Origin: a phage | NCBI GenBank assembly: GCA_012813795.1 | Contig: GCA_012813795.1_4087.1 | Length of the DNA: 64,000 nt | Reading direction: 5' to 3' (one strand) | Shown: piece after piece, positions 2,536 through 60,733 of the stretch | Layout: each line of letters starts with the position of its first letter | How positions within the stretch are numbered: the first letter of the stretch is position 1 | The notes under the pieces: generated by a model | Told to the model about the DNA's origin: nothing | Databases searched by the model: none | The model's input: the letters and a program-made list of their open reading frames with translations, nothing else | Position numbers and translations under genes: made by a program

Positions 2536-2564
2536 ATTATACTGCTATTATTCAGTACTGTCAA
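2536..2564 (-). promoter_or_regulatory. sigma-70-type early promoter
   Basis: Minus strand reads TTGACA-N17-TATAAT followed by GTTTAT; spacer starts GTACTG. Confidence 0.7.
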
Positions 2565-2839
2565 TCGATATAAGTACCTTTTTTAACATCACAGACTTCT
2601 TCCATCCAATGTGGATTTTCGTTTTTATCAGTGAAGATTTGTTCTGCTTCTTCTTTTGTTTCAGCTAGGACGATACGGTCCCCATCATCCAAAACACGGA
2701 TACGATAAACTTTCAGTTCTTGTTTCTGCTCAAGGATATTACACAGTTCACGTGCTTTTTCTTCATCGCACTCCCCTTCATTAGCATAAAACCAGATTGC
2801 TTTTTTAATAAGGTCACGTTCTTCTTTGGTAAAAGACAT
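2561..2839 (-). CDS. hypothetical acidic protein (92 aa)
   Basis: ORF track; downstream of promoter 2885..2912. Confidence 0.55.
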   Translation of the reverse strand: MSFTKEERDLIKKAIWFYANEGECDEEKARELCNILEQKQELKVYRIRVLDDGDRIVLAETKEEAEQIFTDKNENPHWMEEVCDVKKGTYID

Positions 2840-3481: not shown

Positions 3482-4276
3482 TTAAATTACATAGGGTTTA
3501 TAGTAATGAATCTCATTTGCTATTGCAGTGAAAACTTTCTTATTAAATCTTTCACCATAATCACGAAGTGATTCACCTTCTACGCTTTCAATAAAGTAAT
3601 TATATACTGGTAGTCGTGCACTGTCAATACCTATAAACGATTTCATGTAAATTTGTACTAAACGATTCATACCTGAATTTAAACATTCAACATCAAAGTG
3701 CTTGATACCTTTGTCTAAGTGCTTGAATGCATTGATGATACCACGCTTGAAATCACGCTCCATAGTACTGAATAGATTCTCAGGAAACACTGTAATCGGA
3801 GACATGGATTTAAGAATGTATGTATCTTTTGCATTCTTGATGTACTCAATGAAGCAGTAGTTTACATTAGGCTCAATTGAACGGTCTGCATTATGATACC
3901 AGTACTTAAACTCGCTGTACTCTGCGAACTTATGCTGGCGTAAGGCATTACAATCCTCACACAGTGCAGTCATGTTCTCTTTATCATTACCACCCTGAAG
4001 ACAGTCAAGTACATTATGGTCTAACGTCATGCGTACAAGGCGTTTCCCTTTAAGTACATAAGGTCTGAATTTATAACGGTCTTTAGTACTGTGCTTATGT
4101 AAAGTGAATACTACATTGGATTCACCACAACAATCACATTTAAAGCCGTCACGAGACATTACATGAATGAGTTTGCGAGTATTAGGTCCAAACTCAGATT
4201 TAGTAATATTATCCACAATTTCTGATGGTTGGTAATATTTTGAATTCAGTCGAATCAATTCATCGATAGTACTCAT
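3482..4276 (-). CDS. HNH-motif nuclease domain protein
   Basis: CDCCG...LDHNVLDCLQGGNDKENMTALCEDCNALR (Cys pairs flanking H-N-N); start moved to MSTIDE with GAGGA SD just after upstream stop. Confidence 0.65.
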   Translation of the reverse strand: MSTIDELIRLNSKYYQPSEIVDNITKSEFGPNTRKLIHVMSRDGFKCDCCGESNVVFTLHKHSTKDRYKFRPYVLKGKRLVRMTLDHNVLDCLQGGNDKENMTALCEDCNALRQHKFAEYSEFKYWYHNADRSIEPNVNYCFIEYIKNAKDTYILKSMSPITVFPENLFSTMERDFKRGIINAFKHLDKGIKHFDVECLNSGMNRLVQIYMKSFIGIDSARLPVYNYFIESVEGESLRDYGERFNKKVFTAIANEIHYYKPYVI

Positions 4277-4277
4277 T

Positions 4278-4502
4278 TTAGATTTCCTCTTCACTGCATT
4301 CGGTGATTACTTTTTTAACCTCTATAACTCTTACTAAATGATACCCGCACCTATGGTTGAAATTAAACATGTTTACTAATGCATCAGCTTCTGTTTTTGC
4401 CCTAAATTGGAGATTATATATGTGCATAGTTTCATCGAGTGAGGCTTCACCTTTGCTATTGAAAACAATTTTACAAACTTCAAACCTTACTCGATAAATC
4501 AT
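4278..4502 (-). CDS. hypothetical protein (74 aa)
   Basis: ORF track; 4-nt overlap upstream. Confidence 0.45.
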   Translation of the reverse strand: MIYRVRFEVCKIVFNSKGEASLDETMHIYNLQFRAKTEADALVNMFNFNHRCGYHLVRVIEVKKVITECSEEEI

Positions 4503-4804: not shown

Positions 4805-5324
4805 CTTTTAATATTGACGGGATTTGAGGAAGGGATTTTTCTTCCCCCCGCTGGGAGGGGAATTTGACGCTGATGGTATCAGAGCTATTGCATTGAAGAT
4901 TACTCTTAATGAGTACGAAAGCGGGTCATCCTGTTTCTCTCTACTTCAGTTTCATATGACGGTCTACACTTTTAAACATAGTGTATCTTCATTAAGTATC
5001 TATGCAATCAAATACTTAATGTGAGTACTCAAATTTTGGACGCAACTTTCCTGTACAAAATTTGATAACTCTCCCTTAGATAATTCGTAAGGTGTTATCC
5101 TTATATGTCTATCTAGGAACCACCAGCCATCCTAACGTGGTTCTTTATAGTGCCGCATTGCCGTGAGGGGTTCATAATATGCCCACATCTGACGGGTTTC
5201 TTCTGCACTTCGCACTGCTGGACTGCTCAACTGCCCTCTACATTTTCGAGTGGATCAGGTTCATGTCATCCATGCCAACAGAATTGTACAATATCATTGT
5301 ATCATGAACATCCATTTTGTCCCA
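4805..5324. ncRNA. ORF-free, hairpin-rich island; candidate large structured RNA (strand unresolved)
   Basis: No ORF longer than 66 codons and none with an SD; several 5-9-bp nested stems; locally GC-richer; only one AGTACT. Confidence 0.3.
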
Positions 5325-5358
5325 TAAAAAAAGGGCTGACCTAAGTCAACCCTTTTTC
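5325..5358. terminator. bidirectional rho-independent terminator
   Basis: A7-AGGGCTGAC-CTAA-GTCAACCCT-T5 directly after the sigma gene stop. Confidence 0.75.
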
Positions 5359-5359
5359 T

Positions 5360-6322
5360 TTAGAAATCTTCGTATTCGTACCCTTTTTCAAGTACTATTT
5401 TTTTAAGCTTTTGAATAGCTTCACTATATTTTCGGTGCACAGATGAACGGGACTTAACAATGTTTCCTTTATCATCAACATATCCATTATCAGAAATTTC
5501 ACGAAGGGTTTCTGCTTTGTAATCCCCAAGACCATGAACACGCATGATAATTTCTCGTTCTTTAGTACTCAATTCGTCAATGATTTCTGTGATTGCATAA
5601 CGTAATGGATTACAAATGCTATCAACATTAAGGTTATAATCACGAGCAGATGAACTCAGAATATCCCCAAGGGTTCCGTCTGAATCTGAACCCAGTTGTG
5701 CATCAAGAGTCGTATATGCATTCTGGTATAACAAACAGTTCTTAACGTGCTGAAGCTCGATACCAGTACTCTCAGAGATTAATTCTGGTGTTGGTCGCTT
5801 ACCGTGTTCACGTTGATATGATTCATTAAATCGACGTACTTGGATGTTATGAACGCTCATATAACGTGGTAAGTACACCATGTAATTTGCATCTGAACTT
5901 TCATTATACATAGTCATATAAACGGACGTTGTTGCATATGTAATGAATTTGACATTCTTACTAAGATCAAAGGTTTTAAGTGCTCGCATAAAACCTTCTA
6001 CGCCATATGCAATTTTATCTTCAAACGGAATATAACATGTACACTTTGAAGCAACGTCAACAATCATACCATAGTTGTAACGAAGTAATAGGTCAGTATT
6101 CTTTTTTACATTAATCCCAGCACGAATCTCTTCTATGATAGATTCATTAGTTACACCTGCTGGACGTTTAATACTGATATTACTTTTACTACGAACTTTA
6201 TGTGGAATATCATCTTCAATAACTTCTGATGGTTCAATTGCTTCCAATGGATTGACTTCTTCATTCGCAAAACATTCATCCAGTACTTCTTCGGAAATTG
6301 CGTTTAAGTCTAGTTTCTTCAC
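5360..6322 (-). CDS. sigma-70 family RNA polymerase sigma factor (320 aa)
   Basis: Collinear with sigma-70 regions 2-4: FITYATTSVYM..., GKRPTPELISESTGIE, LGSDSDGTLGDIL, STKEREIIMRVHGL, C-terminal HTH. Confidence 0.85.
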   Translation of the reverse strand: MKKLDLNAISEEVLDECFANEEVNPLEAIEPSEVIEDDIPHKVRSKSNISIKRPAGVTNESIIEEIRAGINVKKNTDLLLRYNYGMIVDVASKCTCYIPFEDKIAYGVEGFMRALKTFDLSKNVKFITYATTSVYMTMYNESSDANYMVYLPRYMSVHNIQVRRFNESYQREHGKRPTPELISESTGIELQHVKNCLLYQNAYTTLDAQLGSDSDGTLGDILSSSARDYNLNVDSICNPLRYAITEIIDELSTKEREIIMRVHGLGDYKAETLREISDNGYVDDKGNIVKSRSSVHRKYSEAIQKLKKIVLEKGYEYEDF

Positions 6323-6343
6323 TTACTTCTCCTAATGAAAAAA

Positions 6344-6841
6344 TCAAAATTGGTATACATTAATATTGTCGTCAGTATATTCATCGTGGTTTTTTACCTC
6401 TTTGAAAGTACTGAATATTTTTTGAAGTAGTGTGTCTTGGTTCTCATGCACAGCAGCATCAACCATGTACTCTCCACCACTTCCCATGAAGAATACATAT
6501 TCCTCATGCATGAACTCAAGGTACTTAAAAAACTTCCCGTTCTTTGTTCCTAAGTGAATACAATAATCTTTGGACAACAAGACACAATGGCAGTTCTCTT
6601 TTCTACTGGGCAGTACTATATCACCATATATCAAATACATCAAGACTTTATTGATTTCATTCACTGAACCTGCTGCACTAAACAGACGATCATGAATGTA
6701 TAATGATTTTTGAGTAACTACACCATATTGTTTTTTTGGTTTTAACGGGAATAATCCGAGAAAGTACCTCTCTGTAGAGGTTGTTACTCTTGAATCAGTG
6801 AGCAATAATCCAACACGCTTGTCAACATATACTGTAGTCAT
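6344..6841 (-). CDS. HslV / proteasome-beta-like Ntn-hydrolase (165 aa)
   Basis: N-terminal MTTVYV (Thr nucleophile after Met removal), FSAAGSVNE vs HslV GFAGGTADA, MGSGGEYMVDAA vs HslV IGSGGPYAQAAA. Confidence 0.5.
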   Translation of the reverse strand: MTTVYVDKRVGLLLTDSRVTTSTERYFLGLFPLKPKKQYGVVTQKSLYIHDRLFSAAGSVNEINKVLMYLIYGDIVLPSRKENCHCVLLSKDYCIHLGTKNGKFFKYLEFMHEEYVFFMGSGGEYMVDAAVHENQDTLLQKIFSTFKEVKNHDEYTDDNINVYQF

Positions 6842-6842
6842 T

Positions 6843-7268
6843 CTACACCTTATCTAAGAATGCGGAATATATATCAATTTCTCTTCCTTTCAATACCTTA
6901 TCAAATGGGAAGGGATCTTTACTTCCAGTTAATATACCAAGTTTTGTGAAAAAATACAAGGCAATGAATTCAGTTATTTTGATGTTTTTCTTACTCTTAA
7001 CCAATTCTGCATAAGCAGAATTATAATCAAATTTTGTAGATGAACCATCAAATCCAAAATAGTGAATGTTGTAATTTTTTGAAAAGTTACTAACTGTCAT
7101 TCTTTCACATATCAAATCAATGGCTACTTTGGACCTACAATGCTTATTGAGTAAATCATAATTACAATTATTCAATGCCTCGTATATATCAAAAGACTCT
7201 TGAGCCAGTGTATGTACTTTAGGCTTAATTAGTTTACTTAGTAAGTACCTTATCTTTTTCAGAATCAT
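6843..7268 (-). CDS. hypothetical protein (141 aa)
   Basis: ORF track. Confidence 0.5.
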   Translation of the reverse strand: MILKKIRYLLSKLIKPKVHTLAQESFDIYEALNNCNYDLLNKHCRSKVAIDLICERMTVSNFSKNYNIHYFGFDGSSTKFDYNSAYAELVKSKKNIKITEFIALYFFTKLGILTGSKDPFPFDKVLKGREIDIYSAFLDKV

Positions 7269-7973: not shown

Positions 7974-8013
7974 TGTGTTTTTCCTTTTTGGTTTTCAATT
8001 AAAGTAGGAGTAC

Positions 8014-8042
8014 ATTGTACTCCTATATTTCAGTACTGTCAA
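8014..8042 (-). promoter_or_regulatory. sigma-70-type promoter
   Basis: TTGACA-N17-TACAAT; spacer begins GTACTG. Confidence 0.65.
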
Positions 8043-8327: not shown

Positions 8328-8356
8328 ATTATATCCCTTAACACATTTTATGTCAA
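8328..8356 (-). promoter_or_regulatory. sigma-70-type promoter
   Basis: TTGACA-N17-TATAAT. Confidence 0.65.
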
Positions 8357-11376: not shown

Positions 11377-11404
11377 ATTATACTCAAAAATACAGGTCTG
11401 TCAA
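11377..11404 (-). promoter_or_regulatory. sigma-70-type promoter
   Basis: TTGACA-N16-TATAAT. Confidence 0.6.
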
Positions 11405-11426: not shown

Positions 11427-11434
11427 CATAAATA
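11427..11434 (+). promoter_or_regulatory. possible T4-type late promoter element
   Basis: CATAAATA (7/8 match to TATAAATA) 36 nt upstream of the ATG at 11470. Confidence 0.25.
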
Positions 11435-11469: not shown

Positions 11470-12627
11470 ATGTCTAGAACCATAGCTGATACCGGTGAAT
11501 ACAAGTTCGGTGAATGTGGTTATATCGTGGATGGTGCTTTACTAATCGATGGAACCAAATTAAAAAATATAAGAATTTACAGGCAGCGTAGTTATAAACT
11601 ATTTGATATTATAGATCCTGTAACAAACAAAATATATAGACGCGTACAAATTACTTCTTATGATAAGGTAGGAAATTTACTTAACTATAAAAAATCCGAT
11701 GATGAATTATTGGATGTTATTGCAAAGAATACTTTCTTTGTTCGTGGATACACTAATCATTTGAAACCTACAGATCCAACAGGGTTTGTAACTAAATTCC
11801 AATTACACAAAACGATATTTGGAAACTCCGATGTTACTTTTGATATGTACACACCAACTTGTTCAATTATTGATCGTGATATAGATAATATTTTAGTTAA
11901 TCCAGTTCATGTTGGGGATACTGAAATATCGGGTAAACTGTTCAATGCTGGACAAACCATCAACACAACAGGAATGACAATTACTGTAAAATTTTCAGAT
12001 GGGTCCGAGTATTCAACGAGTACAATAGTCAATGATGAATTCATTATAACAGTACCGGAAATTATGTCAACCGGAACTGCAACTATAACTCTTACGTCTG
12101 ATTTTTATAATACAAAAAGCGTTGATTTTAATATATTAGATGTTGGTGAGGATGACGGCTTAACCACTACTGTATCAGTAACTACATTCAGTACTGGGCC
12201 TGGTGATGTGTATAGTGCAAGAATCCCTGCTGATGTACATGGGCGTGGTAATAACTTAGCTATTCAGGTATATGATAATCATAATAATTTGGTATCTGCT
12301 GGCATTAATGTTAGCTCTACTGGTGATATTACAGTAACAATATATGATAATACACCTATAAAACTAAGTATATTGGGTAGTACATTACAAACATCTCCAT
12401 ATGTACAAAATGTCTCTTCTTCTGAATGGACACGCAATGGTGAAATGTATGAAATTAATATATCCAGTACTGGACACTTAAAAGAATTTGTTTTTGTTCA
12501 AGTATATGATAATAACAATGATGCAGTTCAATGTGAAATTCAGCTTGATGATGATGAGAATGTTACAATTACTTCTGTCGAAGCATTTGATGCAAAGATT
12601 GTAGTGTTTGGTTATAACAAACAATAA
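11470..12627 (+). CDS. beta-sandwich repeat protein (385 aa), possibly virion or surface associated
   Basis: Only plus-strand CDS; GAGGGG SD; internal repeat [IV]QVYDN-x-NN-x-V...G[DN][IV]T[VI]T occurs twice; terminator follows. Confidence 0.7.
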   Translation: MSRTIADTGEYKFGECGYIVDGALLIDGTKLKNIRIYRQRSYKLFDIIDPVTNKIYRRVQITSYDKVGNLLNYKKSDDELLDVIAKNTFFVRGYTNHLKPTDPTGFVTKFQLHKTIFGNSDVTFDMYTPTCSIIDRDIDNILVNPVHVGDTEISGKLFNAGQTINTTGMTITVKFSDGSEYSTSTIVNDEFIITVPEIMSTGTATITLTSDFYNTKSVDFNILDVGEDDGLTTTVSVTTFSTGPGDVYSARIPADVHGRGNNLAIQVYDNHNNLVSAGINVSSTGDITVTIYDNTPIKLSILGSTLQTSPYVQNVSSSEWTRNGEMYEINISSTGHLKEFVFVQVYDNNNDAVQCEIQLDDDENVTITSVEAFDAKIVVFGYNKQ

Positions 12628-18696: not shown

Positions 18697-19465
<769 letters not shown>

Positions 19466-20437: not shown

Positions 20438-22078
<1,641 letters not shown>

Positions 22079-22531: not shown

Positions 22532-23385
<854 letters not shown>

Positions 23386-27560: not shown

Positions 27561-27589
27561 ATTATATCATTGGATTCGAAATTGTTCCA
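27561..27589 (-). promoter_or_regulatory. possible promoter (weak -35)
   Basis: TGGAAC-N17-TATAAT-GTTTTC. Confidence 0.35.
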
Positions 27590-40748: not shown

Positions 40749-41024
40749 TCAGTTGAACCCCCATAAATGTGCAAATGAACTGTCATTTCTAACCAATTCT
40801 TTTGCATACGAACTAATTGCATTCACAACCATAATATTAACACAATTCAACTCATGAAGAACAAGTTCATTACCACATAATGAACAAGATGTACTATAAA
40901 ATGGTGTTGGTAATTTTATATAGCCACCTCTTAATGGAAAGACTTGTTCCTCTATTGTCAACATTGTATCAGACGGAGTGACAAACATCTCACATTCAAG
41001 ACAACAAATTTTCACTTTATCCAT
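40749..41024 (-). CDS. zinc-ribbon protein (91 aa)
   Basis: CCLECE...CSLCGNE. Confidence 0.5.
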   Translation of the reverse strand: MDKVKICCLECEMFVTPSDTMLTIEEQVFPLRGGYIKLPTPFYSTSCSLCGNELVLHELNCVNIMVVNAISSYAKELVRNDSSFAHLWGFN

Positions 41025-45426: not shown

Positions 45427-45436
45427 TATATGTCAA
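45408..45436 (-). promoter_or_regulatory. sigma-70-type promoter embedded in the terminator hairpin
   Basis: TTGACA-N17-TATAAT; the -10 lies in the loop and 3' arm of hairpin 45400..45425. Confidence 0.55.
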
Positions 45437-55908: not shown

Positions 55909-55916
55909 TATTTATA
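55909..55916 (-). promoter_or_regulatory. T4-type late promoter element
   Basis: Exact TATAAATA on the minus strand, 34 nt upstream of the ATG at 55875. Confidence 0.4.
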
Positions 55917-55956: not shown

Positions 55957-57369
55957 TTAATCTTCAGACTTAGGTGTAAAGTCCATTTTTAGTAATTCTT
56001 GTAGTTCTTCTTTATAGATATTCCAGATTTTATCTTGGTTATTAAGTAAATCATTATAACTATCCATTAGATCTAGATTATCTTGAATGTCTTTCAGTAC
56101 TACATCGTAATTATCTTTCGTCCAGCGATAAGATGGGAAGTTTACAATACTCTGGATATTCTCAGATGTAGCTTCGATTTCAGTATTAAGCGAAGTTACA
56201 AATTCAACCATTTCAGCACGGTTTGCAAAGCCTTTTACTTTACCAATCATGTCATTATCAAAACACTCTTTGATGAGAATCTTATAACGAACTTCGGCTG
56301 CACAGTCTTCCAGTTTCTTCTCATATCGCTTCACATAGTATTTGAAACGGAAATTTACGAAATCTTTAATCAGGTCAAGTGTACTGTCATATACACGAAC
56401 TTTACCATTTTCACCAAGAACAGTTAACAATTGAGTCATTTTCTTATTCAATCCAAAATACTCAATTACATCAGCTTCGGTCCATTTTTGAGAAATTCCG
56501 CGTGGTAGTTTGATCGTGATATCAATAACATCAGTACTATCATTATCGTAATCACGAATATCACCATCATCACTCATCTTGATTAGTTTTTCGATAAACT
56601 TTTCAATACTATAATTGGGTGGAAGACCTGTCACTTTAACAGTACTTGCGTCAATTACCTGTGCTTTACCATAAAATTCATATTTGTTTTCGTCTAGTTT
56701 AGTTACTATATCACTAGCACCAACCGATGCATAATATGGTGTCATTTCTTTAAGGGGTTTCCCTTCAATTGCACGAATACAGTTCTTTATTACATCCTCA
56801 ATCTTATGTGGAAGAATTGTACTCTTATACCCTACTGACATACTATCATTACCAAACAATGCTAATGGGATGATAGGTAGGAAGTGTACTGGTTCCATTG
56901 TAGTACCATCATAGTTCTCTTTCATTGGAATTATATCCATATCACGTAGAACTAATGCTTCAGTCGTTTTTGTCTTTTTGACGTAGGTATAACGAGCAGA
57001 TGCCGGAGTACTGTTAACTTGTGTCCCGAAACCACCACGCTTACCAATCAGTGGGTAGTTGTTAGCAACTGGACTAGCTAGGTTTTGTAATGTTCCTGAT
57101 GCAGATGTGTCACCATGAACGTAAATCCCATCACTGATCATACGACCTGCACATGAAACAGTTTTAATCTCCCCACTGATTTTGGATAATGTGAAGATTG
57201 CTTTACGTTGAGAACTCTTGAGTCCGTCAATCCCTGGGATAGCACGGTCAAGTGTGTACATTGAGTATTCTAATGATGTAGTATTGACATAATCTGAACT
57301 TTTATAATCAAGTAAAGTTAGAGTTAATTCATCAACATTTGTATTAGTGTTTTTCTTACTTTTAGCCAT
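55957..57369 (-). CDS. type II DNA topoisomerase, DNA-cleavage subunit (GyrA/ParC N-terminal-like; T4 gp52-type), 470 aa
   Basis: LDRAIPGIDGLKSSQRKAIFT; active-site Tyr context PASARYTYVK. Confidence 0.85.
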   Translation of the reverse strand: MAKSKKNTNTNVDELTLTLLDYKSSDYVNTTSLEYSMYTLDRAIPGIDGLKSSQRKAIFTLSKISGEIKTVSCAGRMISDGIYVHGDTSASGTLQNLASPVANNYPLIGKRGGFGTQVNSTPASARYTYVKKTKTTEALVLRDMDIIPMKENYDGTTMEPVHFLPIIPLALFGNDSMSVGYKSTILPHKIEDVIKNCIRAIEGKPLKEMTPYYASVGASDIVTKLDENKYEFYGKAQVIDASTVKVTGLPPNYSIEKFIEKLIKMSDDGDIRDYDNDSTDVIDITIKLPRGISQKWTEADVIEYFGLNKKMTQLLTVLGENGKVRVYDSTLDLIKDFVNFRFKYYVKRYEKKLEDCAAEVRYKILIKECFDNDMIGKVKGFANRAEMVEFVTSLNTEIEATSENIQSIVNFPSYRWTKDNYDVVLKDIQDNLDLMDSYNDLLNNQDKIWNIYKEELQELLKMDFTPKSED

Positions 57370-59416: not shown

Positions 59417-59446
59417 ATTGTATCACGAAAAGTTTATTTGTCTCAA
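59417..59446 (-). promoter_or_regulatory. sigma-70-type promoter with extended -10
   Basis: TTGAGA-N18-TACAAT preceded by TGA. Confidence 0.45.
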
Positions 59447-59878: not shown

Positions 59879-60733
59879 TTATTTAACAAGGAGTAATTGT
59901 AACTCAGCACTTGGGCTTGTCTCATCATCACTCCAATATTTGTGAACTTTTTCTGGTGTTGCCTTTGCTAAAACTTCACCACCACCAACAATGTACACTT
60001 GATGTGATCCAATTAGTCTAGTCCAAAATTTAATTGCATCATCAGTGTGTAAACTATCACTAAGTATAGCGTAGCCGTGCTTTAGCATATCCATAAAGAT
60101 AGTGTAAATGATACCTTTTGTGCCTGTTTTAGATGCAGTTGCTGCGATTTCGAAAACATTCTGAACACCTAGTACTGCATCATTAGAAGTATAACCACTA
60201 ACAATAGCTAGTTGTTTACCGCTCTTATCATATGCGATAAAACCAGTACCATTCTTATTCTGATAAACGTCATAATCATTGTGCTTAGCAAAGATTACCA
60301 TGTTATGCTTACCTGTCATTTCTGCTGTCTTATCTACAAACTCATCACGGTCTTGGCCCTGAAAACTATCAAAGCGTTGTGGCATTTCTTCCAACTTCTC
60401 AGTATTTTCATAGAAGTGATGTTCTTTATTTTGACAACACTGTTCACACTCACAATCATCTGCGTGTACATCCATTGTATCATCAATTTCAGGATTGTCC
60501 TGTGCAATTTCTGCATCTTGAATGATATCCACCCAACCTTTCATTGAAGATTCAGTAGTTTTCTTTTTAACGTGTTGGGGCAACTTCGCCCCCTTTTTAA
60601 GATTTCCAGCTTTTTCATCAGCATGATTCCATTCCTTAGCAGTATCTGTTGATACACCATGTGATTTTGCAATCTCTGGGTCATGTGCCATAGCAGCAAA
60701 TAGTCTTGCTTGACTCTTAGATTTAGATGGCAT
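59879..60733 (-). CDS. hypothetical protein with DUF3008-like N-terminus (284 aa)
   Basis: MPSKSKSQARLFAAMAH N-terminal motif. Confidence 0.5.
   Translation of the reverse strand: MPSKSKSQARLFAAMAHDPEIAKSHGVSTDTAKEWNHADEKAGNLKKGAKLPQHVKKKTTESSMKGWVDIIQDAEIAQDNPEIDDTMDVHADDCECEQCCQNKEHHFYENTEKLEEMPQRFDSFQGQDRDEFVDKTAEMTGKHNMVIFAKHNDYDVYQNKNGTGFIAYDKSGKQLAIVSGYTSNDAVLGVQNVFEIAATASKTGTKGIIYTIFMDMLKHGYAILSDSLHTDDAIKFWTRLIGSHQVYIVGGGEVLAKATPEKVHKYWSDDETSPSAELQLLLVK

Follow-up and report, generated by a model that had tools for sequence, protein, structure and literature searches.

A jumbo-phage sigma-70-family factor with an insertion in region 4 and a candidate middle-type promoter class in an Asteriusvirus genome

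Which promoters are read by a sigma factor that a jumbo phage encodes for itself is the question raised by an open reading frame (ORF) at positions 5360..6322 of the DNA analyzed here, a stretch of 64,000 nucleotides (nt) from contig GCA_012813795.1_4087.1 (assembly GCA_012813795.1), hereafter referred to as the window. The window was found to be 97.7-98.7% identical to Escherichia phage A4 (ON286972, 355.5 kb; Asteriusvirus), and corresponds to the reverse complement of an A4-like Asteriusvirus jumbo coliphage genome at about 262-326 kb; its minus strand carries nearly all genes. A previous sequence-only reading had recognized in this ORF a full-length sigma-70-family factor and had suggested that it may define a middle promoter class. 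This suggestion is now the favored one, since a class of the form TGRGACA-N16-TAYAAT was found before replication genes and is, on balance, probably the one read by the phage sigma.

The gene and its parts are placed in the window as follows.
5360..6322, minus strand: gene for the sigma-70-family factor, 320 amino acids (aa), GTG start, equivalent of A4_181 (ORF, profile hidden Markov models (HMMs) and fold)
6173..6322, minus strand: N-terminal part, with a family-conserved motif (aa 1-22) and a variable acidic linker (aa 23-50)
5900..6082, minus strand: region 2, aa 81-141 (Pfam and alignment with E. coli RpoD, RpoS and FliA)
5648..5842, minus strand: region 3, aa 161-225 (Pfam PF04539)
5387..5605, minus strand: region 4, aa 240-312 (alignment and model)
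5453..5491, minus strand: insertion in the region-4 helix-turn-helix, aa 278-290, DNGYVDDKGNIVK, predicted beta-hairpin

The GTG start is preceded by the Shine-Dalgarno sequence TAGGAGAAG, and the protein is 99% identical to the annotated A4 sigma, 73% to 121Q gp167, 42% to the RaK2 protein and 34% to that of CBB. The order of regions 2, 3 and 4 claimed earlier was borne out by ordered Pfam matches and by the modeled fold. Sigma70_r3 (PF04539), whose gathering score is 25.3, reached 41.9 bits, indicating that region 3 is present as in groups 1-3 and unlike extracytoplasmic function sigmas. Sigma70_r2 (PF04542; gathering score 24) matched aa 81-141 with 23.4 bits, a marginal value when taken alone, and is on record as a precomputed match for most family members. 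Sigma70_r4 (PF04545) covered aa 248-278 only, that is, profile positions 2-28 of 50, because the insertion interrupts region 4; RpoS models aligned onward to aa 318. Thus, sigma profile HMMs do match both regions 2 and 4, the former just under its gathering score and the latter over its first half. Moreover, the ORF matched PHROG_351, "RNA polymerase sigma factor" (E = 8e-51), and TIGR02393, RpoD_Cterm, over aa 79-283 (E = 7e-26), its best NCBIfam matches being RpoD- and RpoS-type models (E = 1e-26 to 1e-19). The AlphaFold2 model had a mean predicted local distance difference test score (pLDDT) of 69, with folded domains at about 80-89, and its top Foldseek matches were sigma-S and sigma-A chains with a probability of 1.0.

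The residues of sigma-70 that form the -10 pocket (F419, K426, F427 and Y430) and the core-binding motif of region 2.2 are kept in the phage protein. It is not primary-like, since the tryptophans W433/W434 are replaced by T/S, Q437 by M and T440 by Y, and all RpoD and RpoS models stayed far below their equivalog cut-offs (at best 91 bits against 354, TIGR02393). The N-terminal extension had been described as acidic and about 100 aa long; the acidity was upheld (net charge -8 over aa 1-50), and the length was corrected to about 75 aa. Within it, aa 1-22 are kept across the family as KKLDLNxIxEEVLDECFxNEE in alignments, and aa 1-48 are predicted to be disordered (pLDDT <50). As judged from these comparisons, the ORF encodes a genuine alternative sigma of the sigma-70 family, with predicted core binding. 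It is not a new gene, as it is already annotated as a sigma factor in the GenBank records of A4, 121Q, PBECO4, RaK2, GAP32, CBB, XaC1 and others.

The interruption of region 4, also pointed out by the earlier reading, was recovered both as an alignment gap and as a modeled hairpin. When the protein was aligned with sigma-70, sigma-S and sigma-28 of E. coli, nine additional residues, SDNGYVDDK, fell between the two helices of the helix-turn-helix, and aa 281-289 were modeled as a beta-hairpin (pLDDT of the block about 85-88). The insertion pattern G-[FYL]-x-D-x-x-G-K-x-x-x-S and the N-terminal motif LDLNxIxEEVLDECF are both present in the window sigma. When 1.84 billion proteins were searched, only 17 representatives at 50% identity reached E <= 1e-30. 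The insertion was present in 18 of the 19 closest such representatives, the exception being a truncated entry of 162 aa, and was absent from a generic bacterial sigma-70 (P0038) ranked just below them. Below the subfamily only generic sigmas followed, with E about 1e-21 and weaker and alignments mostly ending at aa 277-283. The window sigma thus belongs to a small, discrete subfamily defined by an insertion of 9-13 residues predicted to form a beta-hairpin.

A candidate target of such a protein was obtained by setting the window against the intergenic DNA of the replication module of A4, which revealed a promoter class with the consensus TG[AG]GACA-N16-(tGn)TA[TC]AAT. The window holds three strict matches and a 50-kb part of A4 holds five; each of them is on the gene strand, and their total of eight in 114 kb compares with 0.03 expected from 60 first-order Markov simulations. 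In the same 114 kb, the strict pattern was found neither on the opposite strand nor with spacers of 14, 15, 17 or 18. A G at -14 was present in all 17 middle-type sites versus 13 of 33 early promoters. The A4 sites precede the genes for the single-stranded DNA-binding protein (two sites in tandem), primase and exonuclease, as well as genes adjoining the DNA polymerase gene, and one lies just within the dihydrofolate reductase gene. The sites of the window are listed below.
5296..5324, minus strand: TGGGACA-N16-TACAAT, pointing into the ORF-less stretch after the sigma gene
59417..59445, minus strand: TGAGACA-N16-TACAAT, before the topoisomerase II large-subunit gene (start 59382; A4 annotation)
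59896..59924, minus strand: TGAGACA-N16-TACAAT, before a DUF3307 gene (start 59869)
27561..27589, minus strand: variant TGGAACA-N16-TATAAT, before a gene of unknown function
23271..23299, minus strand: ambiguous TTGGACA-N16-TGaTATAAT, before tRNA-Ser, scoring as middle-type and as early-type (1 mismatch)

The counterpart of the 5324 site reads TGGGATG-N16-TATAAT in 121Q and TTGAACA-N16-TATAAT in RaK2. Three predicted promoter classes have been published for CBB and GAP32 (PMC5259590): an RpoD-like class concentrated in the early region that holds the sigma gene, a "divergent" class in which TGAAACG replaces TTGACA before DNA-synthesis genes, and a third class, ATAAATA, before structural genes. 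The Asteriusvirus class is thus the counterpart of the divergent one; the published CBB motif TGAAACG, when searched literally in the window, was not found on the gene strand.

The relation between this class and the phage sigma became apparent from the relatives, in which the gene order of the replication module is kept (121Q, RaK2, SE_PL, CBB, XaC1). At orthologous intergenic sites of RaK2, SE_PL, CBB and XaC1, the flanks have mostly diverged and the -10 element (TATAAT, TAGAAT or TATACT) stays, often with TGn before it, together with a clade-specific heptamer at a fixed distance. An unbiased tally of the heptamers upstream of every -10-like hexamer, made per phage, gave the following commonest forms.
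A4, 121Q and the window: TGAGACA and TGGGACA, spacing 16
SE_PL: TGGGACA and TGGGATG, spacing 17
CBB: TGAAACG and TGGAATG, spacing 16
XaC1: TGAAACA, with -10 TATACT at 3/3 sites, spacing 16
RaK2: TTGAACA, spacing 16-17

The recognition helix S291-R-S-S-V-H296-R-K-Y aligns with T583-R-E-R-I-R588-Q-I-E of sigma-70. In sigma-70, R584, E585, R588 and Q589 contact the -35 hexamer, and R588 reportedly, from genetics and structures, contacts position -33, the G before ACA; of these four residues the phage sigma keeps only R584. The residue at the R588 position was found to vary with the heptamer, the differing base being the one that corresponds to this G.
Histidine (SR[ST]S.HR.Y; NRCTIHRRY in EJP2; SKSAIHRRY in contig L139): A4, 121Q, SE_PL, EJP2 and contig L139
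Heptamers of the histidine clades (A4/window, 121Q, SE_PL, EJP2, L139): G before AC/AT, as in TGrGACA, TGGGATG, TGAGCAT and CGGGAAA
Serine (SK[AP]TLSRRY; TSPTLSRRY): CBB, Kaldavass, XaC1 and contig L138
Heptamers of the serine clades (CBB, Kaldavass, XaC1, L138): A at the same place, as in TGAAACr, TGGAATG and TGAAATT

The case of SE_PL is instructive, as its sigma is 44% identical to that of CBB and 38% to that of A4, yet it has the helix type and the heptamer of A4. Across the subfamily, H, S, Q, Y, F and T all occur as the R588-equivalent; Arg comes after it in every member except one (RaK2-type), and the residue two positions further is mostly Tyr. The early TTGACA class is invariant between these clades, and region 4.2 of the host sigma-70 shows essentially no variation, as far as is known, between E. 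coli, Klebsiella and Pectobacterium. Heptamers that are clade-specific beside an invariant early class and an invariant host region therefore call for a co-evolving phage factor that reads them, and the position of the heptamer at -35 makes region 4 of the phage sigma the obvious candidate. Two minor observations are in line with this: the -10 hexamer is altered as well in XaC1, and the SE_PL hairpin is two residues longer and the spacing 17 rather than 16, which may be a structural correlate or a coincidence.

Several points weigh against assigning this class to the phage sigma. The "middle" timing is deduced solely from the function of the genes that the class precedes. Two members with His at the R588 position, RaK2 (TTGAACA) and contig L137 (TGGTAAA, TGAAATA), break the pairing of His with G. 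The co-variation spans about 10 clades, several represented by a single promoter, and was counted without phylogenetic correction, so that few independent evolutionary changes may underlie it; moreover, no firm consensus for the heptamer could be drawn from the small number of promoters on the contigs carrying P0014, P0017 and P0013. Finally, the -10 part, TGnTATAAT, is the host sigma-70 optimum, so that the host could probably use such promoters unaided, and the residues that read -12 and TG in sigma-70 (W433, Q437, T440, H455 and E458) are all replaced in the phage sigma, W434 being lost too, whereas most other clades keep a sigma-70-like IRQ in region 2.4.

The last two points lead to a different explanation, which we hold to be possible though rather unlikely: TGRGACA-N16-TGnTATAAT would be read by host sigma-70 through the extended -10 element, the heptamer being the site of a phage activator similar to MotA or a weak -35 element, and the phage sigma would have its targets elsewhere. 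T4 middle promoters, which combine a sigma-70 -10 element, often with TGn, and an activator box, provide a precedent. In favor of this explanation, the sigma-70 optimum is matched by the -10 hexamer as well as by the G at -14, and the sigma of this clade has lost the -12 and TG residues. In addition, GACA at a 16-bp spacing represents 4/6 of the -35 hexamer, and the 5323 site matches at 9/12 positions with TG. However, a host sigma whose early class is TTGACA everywhere does not account for clade-specific heptamers, which need a co-evolving phage factor, and these co-vary with the recognition helix of the phage sigma itself. The heptamer lies at the canonical -35 position with rigid spacing, unlike the MotA box at -30, and the altered -10 hexamer of XaC1 (TATACT, 3/3 sites) is left unexplained by an upstream activator. 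Furthermore, no AsiA homologue was found: tblastn with T4 AsiA gave nothing below E = 0.69 in the window and 115 kb of A4, and among 1169 matches in a phage collection, 30 rows sampled across the ranking comprised genomes of 136-200 kb and one 1.6-kb fragment, with no jumbo phage.

The earlier reading had counted more than 25 near-perfect host-type promoters, which agrees with the 33 matches to TTGACA-N16-18-TATAAT with at most one mismatch found on the minus strand (11 of them perfect), against one on the plus strand. Nineteen of the 33 lie at 1-31000 and 14 at 31001-64000, and four were found in the 50-kb replication region of A4. Three signals frame the sigma gene.
8328..8356, minus strand: perfect host-type promoter TTGACA-N17-TATAAT, heading the gene block that ends with sigma
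8014..8042, minus strand: host-type promoter TTGACA-N17-TACAAT (11/12), the nearest strong promoter upstream of sigma
5326..5359, minus strand: intrinsic terminator directly 3' of the sigma stop codon, with a hairpin of -21 kcal/mol (z = -6.8) followed by 7 U

Between 8298 and 5360 the genes follow one another closely, sigma being the last, and the 8042 promoter is the sole further strong one inside the block; the neighbors of sigma matched no Pfam domain and only PHROGs of unknown function. In CBB and four other loci, the surroundings of the sigma gene hold 4-9 TTGACA-type promoters per 8-17 kb, each of them on the coding strand; in the shorter sigma loci of RaK2, SE_PL and XaC1, 0-1 were counted. 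The CBB sigma gene likewise lies in a predicted early region (PMC5259590). From the position of sigma behind the 8356 and 8042 promoters and from the TTGACA-rich neighborhoods of its relatives, early transcription of the gene by host sigma-70 is probable.

A perfect 9-bp hairpin, TAGGAGTAC-AAT-GTACTCCTA, was noted at 8005..8025 on the minus strand (-11.6 kcal/mol, z = -4.5), and the TACAAT of the 8042 promoter falls within its loop and stem. Similar arrangements, in which the -10 element is followed by a sequence complementary to the spacer, occur at 45436 and 30103.

The abundance of these 33 promoters on the gene strand, together with the RpoD- and RpoS-type models among the best HMM matches, would also fit a phage sigma that shares TTGACA-N17-TATAAT with the host and boosts or prolongs early transcription, for instance after sigma-70 inactivation. 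Such a role is very improbable: of the -35-contacting residues R584, E585, R588 and Q589, only the first is kept, the recognition helix varies widely in the subfamily against an invariant TTGACA, and a modeled beta-hairpin is inserted in the helix-turn-helix. Besides, early promoters must act before any phage protein exists.

A protein so altered might not be a specificity factor at all. The tryptophan pair for promoter melting is replaced, and experimental work on any member of the subfamily was not found in the literature searched; these observations would agree with a decoy that competes for core and shuts off host transcription, or with a non-functional relic. The same literature yielded no transcriptome or sigma biochemistry for Asteriusvirus. 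We find a decoy or a relic improbable, considering that a full-length gene with regions 2-4 is kept in phages of seven host genera (Escherichia, Klebsiella, Salmonella, Erwinia, Yersinia, Cronobacter and Xanthomonas), with identities as low as 31-34%, and that the variable DNA-facing position of region 4 in a conserved scaffold is the pattern of a specificity determinant.

Two sequence elements had been put forward by the earlier reading as candidates for recognition by the sigma, namely CAGTACTG and a conserved GTTTAT discriminator, and neither withstood the analysis. The former is a perfect palindrome with an extended consensus of roughly aTTCAGTACTGAAt, and its 34 copies (e.g., at 2553, 8031 and 25761) against 0.8 expected represent an enrichment of about 40-fold; several copies lie inside the spacer of early promoters, which is what speaks for a role at promoters. 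Nevertheless, the palindrome occurs in all three reading frames as well as in intergenic DNA, with 22 of the 34 copies within genes, and has no fixed distance to -10-like elements or gene starts. Its core hexamer, AGTACT, was present at 1.6-3.2 copies per kb in every region and relative examined (RaK2, CBB, SE_PL and XaC1, a Xanthomonas phage being included), with similar densities in replication and structural regions. The spread over frames, the whole genome and the family rules it out as a sigma promoter element; as for GTTTAT, no more than 3 of the 33 early promoters carry it after the -10 hexamer. That either element is what the phage sigma recognizes has, in our judgment, next to no probability. 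The enrichment of CAGTACTG is real, and the palindrome is possibly a binding or modification site.

The late elements of the window form a third class. Both elements reported earlier were located, the exact TATAAATA and the 7/8 match.
55909..55916, minus strand: TATAAATA, a T4-like late element that comes after a terminator hairpin and precedes the start of a gene for a 795-aa structural protein by 34 nt
11427..11434, plus strand: late element cATAAATA (CATAAATA), 36 nt before the structural-protein gene at 11470..12627

The octamer TATAAATA as such is not enriched, as the gene strand has a single copy where base composition predicts 4-6 per strand. The claim that T4-type late elements exist was sustained by the position of the family consensus ATAAATA, five of whose nine gene-strand copies lie in the intergenic 11% of the window. 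Four of these five (63813, 55915, 25142 and 23393) are placed 28-34 nt before a start codon; overall, the late elements lie 28-36 nt before start codons, and two of the genes concerned are annotated as structural. In CBB, the ATAAATA class has been attributed to a gp55-like factor (PMC5259590). By analogy, the late elements of the window would not be read by the product of the present ORF, which is a different protein from that factor.

Two further observations concern these elements. The gene at 11470..12627 is the sole long plus-strand gene and lies inside the minus-strand early region, the early promoter at 11404 diverging from it. In A4 (L006:800-900, 3590-3670 and 40850-40920), CAGTAC directly precedes an AAATA-rich stretch, in the form TTTTTCAGTACnnnAAATAATA upstream of the major capsid protein and a structural gene and TTTTGCAGTACTAAATATT upstream of the large subunit of ribonucleotide reductase, which hints that part of the CAGTACTG palindrome may take part in some late promoters.

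If the heptamer class is indeed the target of the phage sigma, the following sequence of events can be proposed. At the start of infection, the sigma would be made by the host sigma-70 holoenzyme from TTGACA-N17-TATAAT promoters, as the last gene of its block. It would then bind the host core RNA polymerase via its conserved regions 2, 3 and 4 and direct it to TG[AG]GACA promoters before genes for replication, recombination and nucleotide metabolism, as well as before a structured RNA. The 7-bp upstream element would be read by the modified region 4, with its hairpin insertion and SRSSVHRKY in place of TRERIRQIE, and His296, at the R588 position, would specify the G before ACA. Late genes would depend on the third class, ATAAATA, which the literature on relatives attributes to a separate gp55-like factor, encoded outside the window.

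The RNA just mentioned emerged from the ORF-less stretch into which the 5296..5324 promoter points.
4813..5289, minus strand: conserved structured RNA candidate of ~475 nt, with approximate ends, directly downstream of sigma
L011:1802-2279, L010:6832-7302, L012:1881-1995, L138:9951-10027 and L139:12127-12267: related RNA copies

This stretch of 650 nt is 92.7% identical to 121Q, in comparison with ~77% for the sigma gene and its flanks (5000-6862, relative to 121Q and PBECO4), and over roughly 440 nt it is ~70% identical to CBB, GAP32, BF, EJP2, SE_PL and the Xanthomonas phage XbC2. The records of these relatives carry no RNA annotation, most of them listing no feature there, and Rfam gave no match. 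In an alignment of eight sequences, 27 of the 58 predicted pairs showed compensatory changes, 94.6% of the cells were paired against 40-48% in slid controls, and none of 500 shuffles reached the observed covariation score. With a covariance model of its 5' domain, the RNA was located immediately after the sigma gene in the window, 121Q, RaK2 and contig L138, and further downstream in L139 (by 1.1 kb) and CBB (by 4 kb); ncRNA001 and ncRNA002 of PA5oct gave no match. The same model found no paralogue in 417 kb, versus the "4-5 places per record" of the nucleotide comparison, and a 14-mer scan of viral contigs returned mostly chance matches, leaving ~9 true homologues after local BLAST. The middle-type promoter of the respective clade precedes the RNA in 11 of the loci examined; in three GAP32-like loci, only its -10 part lay within the stretch read.

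The linkage between RNA and sigma is suggestive only. A more far-reaching view, which we regard as unlikely, is that of a discrete sigma subfamily confined to jumbo phages that reads a 7-bp -35 element through a code at the R588-equivalent and is coupled, over distant clades, to the ~475-nt RNA as a module for the takeover of host RNA polymerase. On this view, the promoter that drives the RNA, just behind the sigma gene, would belong to the class that the sigma itself reads. In any case, the conserved RNA is a separate lead and may be the more novel object of the window.

Other features of the region were recorded. The early region contains five tRNA genes on the minus strand (19132-19204, 20728-20799, 20893-20964, 20973-21063 and 23174-23260), some of them directly preceded by consensus or middle-type promoters. 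An HNH endonuclease ORF of 270 aa (3482..4294, minus strand; PHROG_35175, E = 6e-147) lies 0.4 kb downstream of the structured RNA; phage A4 has a different small gene at this position, and the HNH ORF is probably a mobile homing-endonuclease insertion. The ORF at 2561..2839 (minus strand, 92 aa), equivalent to A4_187 and labeled "sigma-70 family" in GenBank, had no sigma match in Pfam, NCBIfam or PHROG, and this label looks unsupported. An interrupted topoisomerase II medium-subunit gene was considered and rejected, as the ORF at 55957..57369 is intact.

Phage-encoded sigmas, some of them RpoD-like, are a defining trait of group 2 jumbo phages (Iyer et al. 2021, PMC7824862), and the papers describing the genomes of Sharanji, phAPEC6 and fEgEco12 do no more than record that a sigma is present. 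RpoD-like phage sigmas thus mark a whole jumbo-phage group, yet none has an assigned promoter. The assignment proposed here is concrete and falsifiable, as it specifies a consensus, a rigid spacing and a single base that His296 is predicted to read, and with it the temporal program of 350-kb phages becomes directly testable. If true, it would provide a natural example of re-coded -35 specificity in a sigma with a helix-turn-helix insertion. As therapeutic use of such phages against E. coli, Klebsiella and plant pathogens is being proposed, an understanding of their transcription switch is also of practical value.

The system can finally be compared with those already known. E. coli sigma-70 and sigma-S are the best HMM and fold matches, with 1.2-like, 2, 3 and 4 regions in collinear order; the phage sigma differs from them in having no non-conserved region and no recognizable region 1.1, in its replaced -12, TG and -35 contacts and in its insertion. 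The appropriation of host polymerase by T4 AsiA and MotA is similar in that a sigma-70-type -10 element is combined with a phage-specific upstream element before replication genes; it differs in that no AsiA was found here, the upstream element lies at -35, 16-17 bp from the -10 element, and the window phage has its own full-length sigma. With the T4 gp55 system, it shares ATAAATA or TATAAATA before start codons, and a gp55-like protein is present in relatives (PMC5259590), whereas gp55 itself is devoid of regions 3 and 4 and no gp55-like gene was found in the annotated part of the window.

The gp28 protein of SPO1 is a smaller, more divergent sigma with a quite different -10 element. The proposed logic is the same in both phages, an early phage sigma that displaces host sigma on the host core and reads a middle class, but no close sequence relationship was seen, and the window sigma keeps region 3, an RpoD-like layout and candidate -10 elements of the TATAAT type. 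The transcription scheme of SPO1 is summarized in PMC13401047. The closest systems are the RaK2-like ("group 2.2") sigmas A4_181, 121Q gp167, RaK2 ORF244 and those of GAP32 and CBB (CBB_513), which are orthologues with domain order, insertion and early-region location in common, and as proteins show no essential difference from the window sigma. Therefore, the gene itself is known, and what is added here, being absent from the publications on these relatives consulted here, is the assignment of a promoter class, the insertion that defines the subfamily and the link between recognition helix and heptamer, together with the adjacent RNA.

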